NCBI GenBank assembly: GCA_031257915.1
Contig: JAIRNR010000003.1
Span: forward strand, 7,670 to 71,669
Length of the DNA stretch: 64,000 bases
DNA from: Bacteroidales bacterium
GTDB lineage: Bacteria > Bacteroidota > Bacteroidia > Bacteroidales > P3
Reading direction: 5' to 3'
This document shows, piece after piece, positions 4,999-51,255 of this stretch (positions within the stretch are counted from its first letter, which is position 1; each line of letters opens with the position of its first letter). The notes below the pieces were generated by a model, which worked only from the letters and a program-made list of their open reading frames with translations, was not told the DNA's origin and ran no database searches. The position numbers were made by a program, and so were the translations under genes.

Positions 4999-5103
4999 GA
5001 TTGTTTGAGGTTATTTATGGTTTTAGTTGTAGTTTGATTGTATTTTAGTTGCACAAATATACGAAAATATGTAAAAAACACGAAAGTTTGTGCTTTTGGG
5101 TGC

Positions 5104-5305
5104 AGGGCAAACCTTAAGTTTACAGTGAAATAAAAACTGGGGGTTAAATTTTTACTTTTGTTGTATTAAAGTAAGAAATTAACCAACTAACAGAGGTAAA
5201 CTATCAGGTATTTATAACACTTATTCTTTAATGAAAATTTATAAAGATTTGCGGTTGTAATTTATTTGTTATCAGCAAATAAACTTGTTTAAATGCGTTA
5301 GCCCT
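5104..5305. repeat. MITE-like repeat, long variant (arm AGGGCAAACCTTAAG at 5104-5118, inverted arm TTTAAATGCGTTAGCCCT at 5288-5305)
   Basis: The right-hand ~95 bp are about 85-90 percent identical by eye to the element at 37224-37332. The left arm matches the arms at 37765 and 50475. Confidence 0.6.
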
Positions 5306-5475
5306 GATCCTTTTGCGTTTCTTTGATATTTTTTATTCTTTTTTCATTATATTTGTTTTTTATTTGTATTACGAATAAGCAAAATCAAGCAAATATAAAA
5401 ATCAATACGCAAAATCAAACAAAAACAACCAAAAAAGCAAATAGTTTGTATTGTACATCAATTAATTATTTTATT

Positions 5476-35906: not shown

Positions 35907-37220
35907 ATGAAGATTACGATAGTAGGAACAGGCTATGTAGGTCTTGTGACAGGTGTATGTTTTGCCGAAGTAGGCATTGACGTTTGTTGTGTTGATGTTG
36001 ATAAAGAAAAAATAGTCAAATTAAAAAAGGGTATCTCACCCATCTATGAGCAGGGTTTGGAGGAAATGCTGCTCAATAATATTGAAAGAGGGCGGATTAC
36101 TTTTTCCGATTCTCTGAAAGAGGGGATGAAAGATGCGGAAGTTATTTTTTCTGCCGTAGGCACTCCGCCTGACGAAGACGGCAGTGCGGATTTGCGCTAT
36201 GTTCTTGATGTCGCTCACGAGATAGGGCGCAATATGAACGAATACGTTCTTGTTGTAACAAAAAGTACCGTTCCTGTCGGTACTGCCGAAAAAGTACGTG
36301 TGGCAATAGAAGAAGAACTTACTGCAAGGGGTGTTGATATTAAGTTTGACATTGCATCAAATCCCGAATTTTTAAAAGAAGGTACGGCAATAAATGATTT
36401 TATGTACCCTGAAAGAATTGTTGTCGGCGTAAGTTCTATTCGCGGACAGGAAGTAATGGCACGTCTTTACAAACCGTTTACTCTTAATGGTCATCCTATA
36501 ATTTTTATGGATATTCCGTCTGCCGAAATGACCAAATATGCCGCGAACTCAATGCTTGCAACCCGAATCAGTTTTATGAACGACATTGCTAATTTGTGCG
36601 AACTTGTGGGAGCTGATGTTAATGCAGTGCGTAAGGGTATAGGTAGCGATACTCGTATAGGCAGTAAATTTTTATACCCGGGTATTGGCTATGGGGGCAG
36701 TTGCTTTCCGAAAGATGTGAAAGCACTTATTAAAACTGCTTCCGACAACAATTATAAAATGGGGGTTTTGTCTGCTGTTGAGGAAGTGAATGAAACGCAG
36801 AAATCGCTGATGTTTCATAAATTTATGGCTCACTTTGACGGTAAAGTTAAAGGTATGACCGTTGGTTTTTGGGGTTTGGCATTTAAGCCCGGCACGGACG
36901 ACATGCGTGAAGCACCATCGCTTGTAATGATAGAAAAACTTCGTAAGGCAGGTGTCAATATACGTGCATACGATCCTGTATCAATGCCCGAAAGCAAACG
37001 CCGCATAGGTAATGCAATTACATATTGTAAAGATATGTATGAAACGGCTTATAAGGTAGATGCACTTTTCCTGATTACCGAGTGGACAGAGTTTCGTTTT
37101 CCGGACTGGAAAAAAATTGCTTCTAATTTAAAAAACAAAGTGTTTTTTGATGGTCGCAATCTCTACGAGAAAAAAGAACTGCAACAGGAAGGATTTACTT
37201 ATTACGGCGTTGGGTTGTAG
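35907..37220 (+). CDS. ugd: UDP-glucose 6-dehydrogenase
   Basis: MKITIVGTGYVGLVTG Rossmann fold, catalytic GYGGSCFPKD, and the C-terminal UDP-binding domain. Confidence 0.93.
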   Translation: MKITIVGTGYVGLVTGVCFAEVGIDVCCVDVDKEKIVKLKKGISPIYEQGLEEMLLNNIERGRITFSDSLKEGMKDAEVIFSAVGTPPDEDGSADLRYVLDVAHEIGRNMNEYVLVVTKSTVPVGTAEKVRVAIEEELTARGVDIKFDIASNPEFLKEGTAINDFMYPERIVVGVSSIRGQEVMARLYKPFTLNGHPIIFMDIPSAEMTKYAANSMLATRISFMNDIANLCELVGADVNAVRKGIGSDTRIGSKFLYPGIGYGGSCFPKDVKALIKTASDNNYKMGVLSAVEEVNETQKSLMFHKFMAHFDGKVKGMTVGFWGLAFKPGTDDMREAPSLVMIEKLRKAGVNIRAYDPVSMPESKRRIGNAITYCKDMYETAYKVDALFLITEWTEFRFPDWKKIASNLKNKVFFDGRNLYEKKELQQEGFTYYGVGL

Positions 37221-37223
37221 TTG

Positions 37224-37332
37224 CAGGGCTAACGCGTTTATAATGCTTATTCTTGATGAAAATTTATAAAAATTTGCGTTTGTAATTTATTCGTTATCAA
37301 CAAATTAACTTGTTTAAATGTGTTGACCCTCG
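37224..37332. mobile_element. MITE-like element (~105 bp) with imperfect 17-18 bp terminal inverted repeats and a 9-bp target duplication
   Basis: Arms AGGGCTAACGCGTTTATA (37225-) and TTTAAATGTGTTGACCCT (-37330). TTGTAGTTG flanks both ends (37215-37223 and 37333-37341). No ORF inside. Confidence 0.7.
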
Positions 37333-37387
37333 TTGTAGTTGAAATTTCAAATAAAAACAAGTATCTTTGTATGAGATTTCAAATATT

Positions 37388-37708
37388 ATGGTGCAAAAGA
37401 ATGACACTTTTTCTTTACGTCTAAAAAAAATAATGCCTGAAGTTGGTGAGAATATTAAACTGGCACGGCTTCGGCGGGGGTTTTCTGCGGCACTTATAGC
37501 CGAGAGAGCAAACATAGCAACATCAACATTATGGCTAATTGAAAAGGGTAGCGGAAGCGTATCTTTTGGAAGTTACGCAAAAGTACTGTTTGTTCTCGGA
37601 TTAGAAAAAGATTTGCTGCACCTTGCAAAAGACGACATACTTGGAAGAAAATTGCAAGATGCAGAGATATTAACCAAAAAACGTGCGCCAAAACGAATGA
37701 TTGTATGA
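37388..37708 (+). CDS. XRE-family HTH regulator, HipB-like (orphan)
   Basis: VGENIKLARLRRGFSAALIAERANIATSTLWLIEKG is an HTH_3 motif. A TATCTTTG box lies about 25 nt upstream. Confidence 0.75.
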   Translation: MVQKNDTFSLRLKKIMPEVGENIKLARLRRGFSAALIAERANIATSTLWLIEKGSGSVSFGSYAKVLFVLGLEKDLLHLAKDDILGRKLQDAEILTKKRAPKRMIV

Positions 37709-37753: not shown

Positions 37754-37783
37754 GGTTGACCCTGAGGGCAAACGCATTTAAAA
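37754..37783. repeat. back-to-back repeat arms GGTTGACCCT-G-AGGGCAAACGCATTTAAAA
   Basis: A right-arm core is joined to a left arm with a single-nt spacer. It ends 1 nt before the vapC stop codon. Confidence 0.65.
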
Positions 37784-49781: not shown

Positions 49782-49842
49782 GGTTTTGTTGAAGAAAATA
49801 TTCTTTTCGTAATGATCTGATCGTTTATATTGATTTTTGATT

Positions 49843-50256
49843 TTATGCAGATTCTGCTCCTTTATAGTGTTTGGCTGCCCATGAAATTACATACTTTCCT
49901 TCATCCATTGCTGTTTGAACAATTTTATAGCTCAAAACACCATCATAGCCCAAAGTAAGATGTAACAAGTCGTATGCCGTTTTAAGAGTTCTCGGCATTT
50001 TTTTATCTTTTTTATTAAGTGCATCAAGATAATCCTTAATGTCGGGACGTTGTTTTGGTTTTAAATTTTTACGAACAGGCAATACGCCGTCAAGCGCAAT
50101 AAGTACGCCTTTCCAAGCGGTATCGCCCGCCATTCTAACATATTTAGGATCGTTATAATAACCGCCGTCTTTCTCGGCTTTCGTAGATAAAATTTCACGA
50201 GCATTATCTAAATAACGTTGCGCCTCTTTAATCGGATTTTTGTGAACTGTTGCCAT
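49843..50256 (-). CDS. small all-helical protein (DUF5618-like by recollection), accessory
   Basis: MATVHKNPIKEAQRYLDNAREIL...HLTLGYDG is a four-helix, HEPN-like pattern. AT-rich. The family name is recalled from memory only. Confidence 0.45.
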   Translation of the reverse strand: MATVHKNPIKEAQRYLDNAREILSTKAEKDGGYYNDPKYVRMAGDTAWKGVLIALDGVLPVRKNLKPKQRPDIKDYLDALNKKDKKMPRTLKTAYDLLHLTLGYDGVLSYKIVQTAMDEGKYVISWAAKHYKGAESA

Positions 50257-50330
50257 AGATTTATTATTTTCAATTTCACACGAAGTTAGTAAAAAACTCA
50301 ATATTCTTATTCAGAGCTCTTCACCCGGCC

Positions 50331-50463
50331 AGGGTCAACGCATTAAAATTTTAATTCCCTTATTTACAGATGTTTATAAATCTAATTTTTACCAAATTAT
50401 GAAATATTTCTATATGTAACTTGCTGATTAACACTATTGTATAATTTTTAATGCGTTGACCCT
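50331..50463. mobile_element. MITE-like element (133 bp) with perfect 18-bp terminal inverted repeats AGGGTCAACGCATTAAAA
   Basis: Left arm at 50331-50348 and right arm at 50446-50463 are exact reverse complements. (CT)CTTCACCCGGC lies outside both ends (50317-50329 and 50462/4-50474). The interior is AT-rich with no ORF. Confidence 0.75.
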
Positions 50464-50474
50464 CTTCACCCGGC

Positions 50475-50488
50475 AGGGCAAACCTTAA
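50475..50488 (+). repeat. solo repeat arm AGGGCAAACCTTAA
   Basis: Identical to the arm at 5104-5117. It lies 11 nt after the right end of the 50331-50463 element. Confidence 0.6.
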
Positions 50489-50613
50489 TATCATGATAAA
50501 AAACAAACAATTTAAATTGCCTCTGCCGAAGCACCGCATTTGCAGGAAATTTCGTAACTTTATCACAAAGCCCGGCTTGTTGACTGTGTCGCAGACGAGC
50601 GAGTTGTAAATGT

Positions 50614-51255
50614 ATGAAAAGACAAAGCAGTGCAATGGATTTATCATCGGTGATTACCGATGCGATGTTTGATAAAAAGGCATCAAAAATTATAGTGATG
50701 GATATGCGTAGCGTAGGCGGGGCGTCGTTTGATGTTTTTGTCGTGTGTGAAGCGGTATCGGCAATTCAGGTAAAATCAATAGCAGACGGAATAGAAGAAC
50801 AGGTTTTTAAGCAACTGCACGAACATCCGTTACATAGCGAGGGCTTTACTAATGCGGAATGGATACTTCTTGATTACGGCAATGTCGTAGTACACGTTTT
50901 TCAGGAAAAAATACGTAAACATATAAATTTGGAAGAGCTTTGGTCTGACGCTAAAACGACTGAGCCGAAAGAAAAGAAACCTGTTGTAGCGAAAACGTCA
51001 GCAACGAAAACCGCAACGAAAGCCGCAACGAAAGCCGCAACGAAAGCCGCAACGAAAACCGCAACGAAAACCGCAACGAAAACCGCAACGAAAATCGCAA
51101 CGAAAACCGCAACGAAAGCCGCAACGAAAGCCGCAACGAAAACATCAACGCCAAAAGCCGCAACGAAAACGTCAACATCAAAAACAAAAAAATCACAAAA
51201 AATTATAAATGGAACAACAGGGAAATCAACGTCCGCAACCGCAAGGACAAAATAA
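50614..51255 (+). CDS. rsfS: ribosome silencing factor RsfS with a ~85-aa Lys/Thr/Ala-rich repeat tail
   Basis: Core: DMRSVGGASFDVFVVCEAVSAIQVKSIADGIEE...WILLDYGNVVVHVFQEKIRKHINLEELW. The tail is (A/T)ATK x12 plus degenerate units. Confidence 0.85.
   Translation: MKRQSSAMDLSSVITDAMFDKKASKIIVMDMRSVGGASFDVFVVCEAVSAIQVKSIADGIEEQVFKQLHEHPLHSEGFTNAEWILLDYGNVVVHVFQEKIRKHINLEELWSDAKTTEPKEKKPVVAKTSATKTATKAATKAATKAATKTATKTATKTATKIATKTATKAATKAATKTSTPKAATKTSTSKTKKSQKIINGTTGKSTSATARTK
50995..51185 (+). repeat. 12-bp tandem repeat GCAACGAAARYC (12 regular units plus degenerate flanking units)
   Basis: Units in phase from 51001 to about 51144. In frame with rsfS. Confidence 0.9.

Follow-up and report, generated by a model that had tools for sequence, protein, structure and literature searches.

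A miniature ISAs1-type element of a Bacteroidales bacterium and the fixed distance of its family from predicted promoter boxes

We analysed a 64,000-nt stretch of DNA from a Bacteroidales bacterium (hereafter, the window), in which an initial annotation made from the letters alone had pointed to a short inverted-repeat element between a DUF5618-like gene and rsfS. To judge by its sequence, this element (50330-50464) is a miniature inverted-repeat transposable element (MITE) with the ends of the ISAs1 family of insertion sequences. About three-quarters of the copies of its family in two species lie at one of two distances from a predicted promoter box (the Bacteroidota -7 box, TAnnTTTG), a landing rule that is real but lineage-specific. 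We consider it likely that the element is an ISAs1 MITE that was moved in trans, was placed at a fixed distance from a promoter and came to a site that had been hit serially. The window belongs to contig C1 of a fragmented assembly (G000; 2.49 Mb, 109 contigs, 39.9% G+C, 86% complete), whose other contigs are likewise given as Cn. The sister species is represented by a single same-genus genome (G001), and promoters throughout were predicted from the Bacteroidota consensus.

Anatomy of the element

The sequence AGGGTCAACGCATTAAAA at 50331-50348 has its exact reverse complement at 50446-50463, and a repeat finder extended this repeat to 21 nt at 95% identity. Shuffled sequence predicted 0.20 occurrences of the 18-mer and its near variants in the window; five were observed. 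A direct repeat, CTCTTCACCCGGC, lies at both 50317-50329 and 50462-50474. Alignment of flanks across the family placed the true ends one base further out on each side, at the C of 50330 and the C of 50464. The end consensus of the family is CAGGG...CCCTG; this copy reads CAGGG...CCCTC, with C in place of the consensus G as its last base, and with the outermost bases included the inverted repeat matches at 18 of 19 positions (50330-50348 against the complement of 50446-50464). Because the true ends lie one base outward of the arm ends marked earlier, the target-site duplication (TSD) is the 10-bp TTCACCCGGC; the repeat had been read as 11-13 bp long because one to three of the last element bases match the left flank by chance. 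The features first described, perfect 18-bp inverted termini, a flanking direct repeat and no open reading frame (ORF), are all present in the sequence. The parts of the site are as follows.

50320-50329, no strand: left copy of the TSD, TTCACCCGGC (10 bp), identical to 50465-50474 and in the same register as the TSDs of the family
50330-50464, plus strand: MITE of 135 bp, 133-bp subfamily (16 full-length copies), AT-rich and non-coding, ends CAGGG...CCCTC
50330-50348, plus strand: left terminal inverted repeat, CAGGGTCAACGCATTAAAA, matching the ends of the insertion sequence on C12, CAGGGGCAACGCATTTAAA and CAGGGTCAACGCATTATAA
50446-50464, minus strand: right terminal inverted repeat, last base C where the consensus has G (repeat finder, family census)
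50465-50474, no strand: right copy of the TSD, whose last base, the C of 50474, is the first base of the CAGGG of the remnant
50474 to about 50525, plus strand: remnant of an older family member, about 52 bp, left terminus CAGGGCAAAC, right boundary uncertain

We found no credible ORF within the element; the only mechanical ORF that crosses it (50360-50647, minus strand, 95 aa) is unsupported and extends into rsfS in antisense. Neither an exact -7 box nor a sigma-70-type promoter was present inside the element or between the element and rsfS, where one-mismatch candidates alone occur. The anatomy suggests that this copy has been mobile. Recent mobility, which had been read from the perfect termini, does not follow from them: across the 16 copies the ends are approximately 98% conserved and the interior 95%, so that perfection of the termini points to constraint on transposase-binding ends and not to youth, and only the intact TSD argues against great age.

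Family members and the resident ISAs1 partner

The assembly contains 40 arm pairs in plus/minus arrangement and 32 complete short elements, of which 15 measure 133 bp, 11 measure 138 bp and the rest range from 101 to 141 bp. The element under study, a member of the 133-bp subfamily, measures 135 bp with its true ends. It has 15 full-length sisters, with identities of 88.8-97.8%, and the mean pairwise identity of the subfamily is 92.8%. Perfect 10-bp TSDs flank 20 out of 31 complete copies, with a different 10-mer at each site, and 29 of the 32 complete copies are intergenic. BLAST searches with nine subfamily representatives brought the number of full or partial loci to approximately 91, with a total of 9.7 kb. 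These copy numbers are lower bounds because contig ends stop inside family repeats; of 218 contig ends, 11 fall within a family member, frequently some 117 nt into a copy of the 138-bp subfamily, and the repeats explain part of the fragmentation of the assembly.

A 1,320-bp insertion sequence with the same ends (C12:11154-12475) carries an ORF of 364 aa, which matches the NCBIfam model NF033564, "ISAs1 family transposase", over its whole length (E = 2.2e-112) and also matches Pfam PF13808 and PF01609. It is the only intact copy in the assembly, which contains three fragments elsewhere. Its left end is nearly identical over approximately 36 nt to that of the 118-bp subfamily and has 46 of 60 nt in common with the 133-bp subfamily, the resemblance lying in the left subterminal 45 nt or so. 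The hallmarks of ISAs1 are inverted repeats of 14-22 bp that start with CAGGG and a 10-bp direct repeat (PMC11946415); ISArsp11, for example, has 1,306 bp, begins with CAGGGCTGATGC and makes a 10-bp duplication (PMC6305408). A repetitive extragenic palindrome or bacterial interspersed mosaic element (REP/BIME) with a Y1 transposase was rejected, given copies of 100-205 bp, long inverted ends, 10-bp TSDs and a DDE partner enzyme; such repeats are short, imperfect palindromes that lie in clusters and lack TSDs.

Thus, what had been annotated as a mobile element can now be specified as an ISAs1-family MITE with CAGGG ends, a 10-bp TSD, approximately 30 complete sisters and a resident transposase partner. 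Every defining feature that can be checked in sequence is present, and as an object the element is unremarkable, a bacterial MITE from an insertion-sequence family that is already known. It would be mobilised in trans by a transposase of the C12 type.

Distance between element ends and predicted promoter boxes

In Bacteroidota the -7 box TAnnTTTG spans positions -12 to -5 (PMC9723704, PMC4747536). Across the assembly it occurs at 0.0007 per position and strand and, in the sense orientation alone, is enriched four- to six-fold over the interval 20-50 nt ahead of long ORFs; it therefore behaves as the promoter box of this organism. We scored exact TAnnTTTG in 61 independent flanks of 70 nt from elements of the assembly and obtained the following counts.

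Outward-facing box, 40-42 nt from the element end: 12
Outward-facing box, 30-34 nt from the element end: 8
Outward-facing box, the other 53 offsets together: 2
Inward-facing box, all 62 offsets: 3

The Poisson probability of the peak at 40-42 nt was 1.4e-18. When one mismatch was allowed, 22 flanks had a box at 40-43 nt (5, 12, 4 and 1 at offsets 40, 41, 42 and 43, respectively), and no offset from 44 to 61 had more than two. By a tally of the listed flanks, a box accompanies approximately 25 of the 32 elements on one or both sides. Of 30 boxes, 25 precede a co-directional ORF (60 aa or longer), with a median distance of 27 nt from box to ATG, and several flanks carry TTG 21-23 nt upstream of the box, at the expected position of the -33 element. 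The element end is 17 nt from the -33 TTTG position and falls at about -54 (class I) or about -44 (class II), one helical turn apart; the TSD covers -53 to -44.

The other two complete copies in the window comply with these offsets.

5103-5306, plus strand: family member of 204 bp, with an exact TATATTTG 41 nt past its right end (5348-5355; offset read directly)
37224-37331, plus strand: family member of 108 bp, with the 10-bp TSD GTTGTAGTTG at 37214-37223 and 37332-37341 (family census) and an exact TATCTTTG 30 nt past its right end, upstream of a helix-turn-helix (HTH) gene

The same offsets appeared among elements of other subfamilies at independent sites in the sister species and in metagenome contigs, where 10 out of 16 elements had an exact box, at 40-41 nt (six elements) or 30-33 nt (four elements). 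In a more distant relative of the same order, one out of four flanks had a box at 41 nt. That the flanks belong to a longer repeat was rejected, since 60% identity in register is reached by only 2 out of 1,953 pairs of flanks. Nor was the promoter side seen to depend on element orientation: either end of an element can face the promoter. One promoter-bearing flank (...TTTTCAAGTCAGAAAAAAATCAAAATAATTCGTAAATTTGTAAATCCTTGCAAATTAAGACGAT) is common to three different family members (C42:8746-8810, C101:35276-35340 and C90:60-138); it may be the upstream region of a multi-copy gene or may have been shuffled by recombination or assembly.

Tandem insertions and the solo arm

Beyond the right copy of the TSD stands a third arm, AGGGCAAACCTTAA at 50475-50488, which is identical to 5104-5117. 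Its 15-mer, CAGGGCAAACCTTAA, marks it as the left end of a sub-lineage with further members at window 5103 and on C8. This left terminus is joined at a CCTTAA microhomology to approximately 35 nt of right subterminal sequence, followed by a degenerate right arm, TTGCCTCTG, that resembles the arm on C109 with four bases missing. The stretch 50483-50517 matches the right subterminal region at 94% over 34-35 nt (C36 and C109) and at 96% over 24 nt (C85). These matches support the reading of the solo arm as the end of an older, internally deleted copy, which lost its interior between two CCTTAA motifs.

Since an older family member ends in this third arm, the site was hit at least twice. The initial annotation had proposed nested or serial insertions into one spot. 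Serial, or tandem, insertion holds, since the terminus of the older member is abutted by the new TSD; the same arrangement tells against nesting. The duplicated 10-mer of the new copy ends on the C of the CAGGG of the remnant, so that one base is shared.

At six junctions, two facing family termini are separated by precisely the length of one duplication (9-10 nt), namely at window 50464/50474, C86:18971, C44:4125, C12:12474, C90:277 and one on contig C30 of the sister species (G001:C30). Duplications (Y) and elements (A and B) stand in the order Y-A-Y-B in the window, C86 and C44 and in the order A-Y-B-Y in G001:C30, where one base is shared with the terminus of A. In C86 and G001:C30, the third copy of Y that would be expected beside the distal, resident element is missing. 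The younger element bears a box on its outer side at a canonical distance (41-42 or 33 nt) at three of the junctions, those in the window, C86 and G001:C30. A target position fixed by one promoter and used repeatedly predicts this junction spacing, and attraction to resident ends is a possible additional factor.

Arms also meet elsewhere. At C43:13524-13543 a perfect 20-nt palindrome, AGGGGCAATGCATTGCCCCT, apparently represents two termini fused head to head, with another arm three bases on. Within the window, back-to-back fusion of a right-arm core with a left arm is seen at 37754-37783 (GGTTGACCCT G AGGGCAAACGCATTTAAAA) beside a small HTH gene (37389-37708), another multiply hit site. A second repeat of approximately 65 nt (...TTTAATTTACACACAGACGAATAAAAATTGAGGAAAGAGAATTTATAGGGGAAAT...) is nested in some MITE copies (C86:19050-19120 and C44:3990-4060).

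Flanking genes

Pfam matches confirmed the location of the element between a DUF5618 gene and rsfS. The neighbouring features are listed below.

49843-50256, minus strand: DUF5618 gene, 137 aa from the ATG at 50256 (PF18498, E = 4.9e-38), transcribed away from the element
50281-50288, minus strand: TAACTTCG, resembling the -7 box TAnnTTTG with one mismatch, 41 nt away from the element end and 24 nt upstream of the start codon of the DUF5618 gene
50555-50562, plus strand: TAACTTTA, a weak candidate for a -7 box with one mismatch, located 29 nt past the presumed right end of the remnant and ahead of rsfS
50614-51255, plus strand: rsfS (ribosomal silencing factor; PF02410, E = 7e-27), with a Lys/Ala/Thr-rich tail, followed by ftsH

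The assembly has five DUF5618 paralogues with 76-80% DNA identity, at C1 (window 49843-50256), C95:11320-11783, C108:640-1078, C79:2093-2500 and C105:1968-2366. Two of them, in the window and on C95, have independent 133-bp MITE copies, each exactly 73 nt from the start codon, and the C95 paralogue has an exact box, TAACTTTG, at the same 41-nt offset from its MITE. Duplication of gene and MITE as a unit was rejected on the grounds that C95 has a different 10-bp TSD and that approximately 18 nt of adjacent sequence are unrelated. The C105 paralogue has a family member just past its stop codon and, upstream (C105 approximately 1800-1960), two tandem copies of the 65-nt repeat described above.

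The rsfS-ftsH locus of the sister species (78% DNA identity) has a different upstream gene, an ordinary terminator hairpin and no family arm, and its upstream region is not syntenic. The tail of RsfS in the window (50995-51255) is a long Lys/Ala/Thr-rich repeat of TATK/AATK units that overlaps the ftsH start; a similar though shorter tail (VAKVAKVAKK...) is present on RsfS of the sister species (L002 1374-1877), and the tail is therefore conserved in the genus.

Distribution of the family

A search for the paired-arm pattern returned 17 elements in the assembly and nine in the sister species; 59 further genomes from the taxonomic family gave no match. One other species representative, Bacteroidia bacterium MS495-25, has the exact terminal pair together with a 10-bp duplication, CTACTGCTAA, and four metagenome contigs contain the pair as well. 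A genome of the same class (G314; L049, L053, L056 and L059) contains a 1,391-bp ISAs1 element whose inverted repeat, CAGGGCAAAAGCATTTAAA, is nearly that of the family studied here; it has at least four identical copies with 10-bp duplications, none of them near a -7 box.

Proposed mechanism and alternatives

In the sequence of events that we favour, the source transposase would be an ISAs1-family DDE enzyme, with the 364-aa gene of the 1,320-bp C12 element as the candidate. The enzyme would bind two CAGGG-type inverted ends, cut the element out or copy it, and integrate it with 10-bp staggered target cuts that yield the TTCACCCGGC duplication. The target in this lineage would be non-random: the element end would come to lie 41 nt (less often about 31 nt) upstream of TAnnTTTG, which places it near -54 (or -44) as counted from the transcription start, and the 10 bp that are duplicated would border the core promoter on its outer side. 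An older family member would have landed in this intergenic spot earlier and since decayed to approximately 52 bp, and the present copy would have landed at the promoter position upstream of the DUF5618 gene; the solo arm would stand exactly one duplication length from the new copy because the older one was there first. The distance would have been set at integration and not by selection.

What serves as the ruler is a more tentative matter. Promoter-bound RNA polymerase or another promoter-associated feature may provide it; one possibility, which we put forward with some doubt, is that the transposase docks on promoter-bound RNA polymerase or a sigma factor, reads no DNA consensus and integrates at -54 or -44. 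Integration at a fixed distance from a site that a protein or nucleoprotein complex occupies is known for Tn7 (TnsD at attTn7), for CRISPR-associated transposons and for yeast Ty3 at RNA polymerase III start sites. In those systems, as here, the distance is exact to within a base or two and there is no target consensus, and the two registers one helical turn apart fit a ruler of that type. By contrast, they use dedicated targeting proteins or guide RNAs, whereas in this family one transposase gene stands alone, and RNA polymerase, a sigma factor and DNA shape are the candidate anchors.

Several observations weigh against the explanation that we favour. The box beside the element studied here, TAACTTCG, carries one mismatch. 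TSDs were absent in 10 out of 31 copies, and several of these are flanked by a box on either side, one at 41 and one at 31 nt; recombination between copies and chimeric assembly across repeats are possible causes. The C12 element itself has neither a TSD nor a box at 41 or 31 nt. No duplication flanking the remnant was found, its far side included, so that the same anchor may, but need not, have been re-used at this site. The predicted empty site of the locus is ...GAGCTC-TTCACCCGGC-AGGGCAAACC..., and the joined-flank pattern had no match in metagenome contigs. As controls we used 17 full-length ISAs1 copies that were found via NF033564 in four other Bacteroidota genomes and that have CAGG(G/C) ends and mostly 10-bp duplications; one of these genomes has the inverted repeat CAGGGCAAAAGCATTTAAA, close to that of the family studied here. 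TAnnTTTG was present in none of their 34 flanks of 80 nt each, so that promoter anchoring is not common to all ISAs1 elements of the phylum.

Insertion could instead have been random or AT-biased, with the distance arising through later selection for copies that are harmless outside the core promoter or useful at -54. The MITE copies are old enough for this (mean pairwise identity 92.8%), 29 out of 32 are intergenic, and very young ISAs1 copies of other Bacteroidota, which are 100% mutually identical, lie in coding-like DNA without nearby boxes. Because these control copies are very young and the MITEs are older, selection may contribute. Harmlessness, however, predicts a one-sided boundary, whereas the observed peaks are one to three bases wide and occur at two positions. 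Both offsets are found again in a second species, among different subfamilies, and both element orientations are used, which means that no single internal sequence is delivered to the promoter. We regard selection as a rather improbable source of the spacing. It is also unlikely, although less so, that a transposase bound at the terminus of an older, resident element captures the new copy, in which case the abutting arrangement would carry no information on promoters. Such end-capture of incoming elements is known for some members of the IS30, IS21 and IS3 families, and it would suit the six junctions with termini facing across exactly one duplication length, the single base that, in G001:C30 as in the window, belongs both to the duplicated 10-mer and to the resident terminus, and the resident elements of C86 and G001:C30, which lack the far-side duplication predicted by simple re-use of a target. 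Yet the younger elements in the window, C86 and G001:C30 carry outer boxes at 41-42 or 33 nt, and because these distances are canonical, promoter anchoring alone predicts the position of the junction. Most copies (approximately 25 out of 32) follow the promoter rule without a neighbouring element, and clean cases of facing termini are few (three or four).

We also weighed whether the inverted repeat is a structured RNA, regulatory hairpin or terminator of the rsfS/DUF5618 locus, which we consider extremely improbable. The 18-bp stem does fold well in both orientations (-30 and -34 kcal/mol; z-scores of -5.0 and -5.9), but only the terminal stem is stable, and the low z-scores stem from it. The sole Rfam hit over 49800-50700 was a sub-threshold match to rliB (21.8 bits against a gathering threshold of 40) at 50195-50308, upstream of the element. 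Across 16 copies the interior contains zero to one covarying pairs, the stem is followed by CUCUUCACCC and not by a U-run, and copies occupy approximately 30 unrelated loci, each with its own 10-bp duplication. A conserved feature of the rsfS locus was rejected as well, given the different upstream gene and the missing arm in the sister species. The conserved RNA or terminator in all relatives, against which the initial annotation had set its own interpretation, was therefore not found: there was no Rfam match and no covariation, and the arm is absent from G001.

Comparison with related elements

The ISAs1 family includes ISAs1 of Aeromonas salmonicida, IS1358, the E. coli H-repeat (ISEc1), ISArsp11 of Arthrobacter and Francci3_2330/2941 of Frankia, which have CAGGG ends and a 10-bp repeat, as does the family described here. 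The single DDE transposase (NF033564) is common to them and to the resident partner, whereas the element in the window has only 135 bp and codes for nothing. Repeated insertion at one locus, with the suggestion of a preferred site, was reported in a study of Frankia ISAs1 and resembles the multiple hits seen here. Among Bacteroidales, Porphyromonas gingivalis has MITEs that borrow the ends of resident insertion sequences, namely MITE239 and MITE700 (ISPg3 ends) and MITEPgRS (ISPg1 ends); they too reach tens of copies and have been linked to rearrangements (PMC2575886). They differ in parent families, ends and duplication lengths, and promoter-anchored placement was not reported for them (PMC2575886). 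In the literature searched, we found no ISAs1 elements described as landing at a fixed distance from promoters and nothing specific on ISAs1-derived MITEs or on target choice by ISAs1. Borrowed ends are thus already known in Bacteroidales MITEs; promoter-anchored placement was not found in that literature.

Significance

It is the landing rule, and not the MITE itself, that is out of the ordinary. The rule would account both for the serial insertions at one spot and for the two DUF5618 paralogues that bear independent copies at an identical distance. If the distance is set at integration, this family would be a simple natural example of promoter-guided transposition in bacteria and would illustrate a way for a transposon to spread through a compact 2.5-Mb genome and yet spare its genes. 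An insertion at -54 does not disrupt the -33 and -7 elements, which would explain the persistence of approximately 90 copies. If the transposase does dock on the promoter complex, a plain single-gene DDE transposon would possess a built-in "safe-harbour" ruler that spares core promoters. Elements placed in this way would also provide a free computational marker of promoters in uncultured Bacteroidales, and they may offer a lead for position-defined insertion tools in Bacteroidota.

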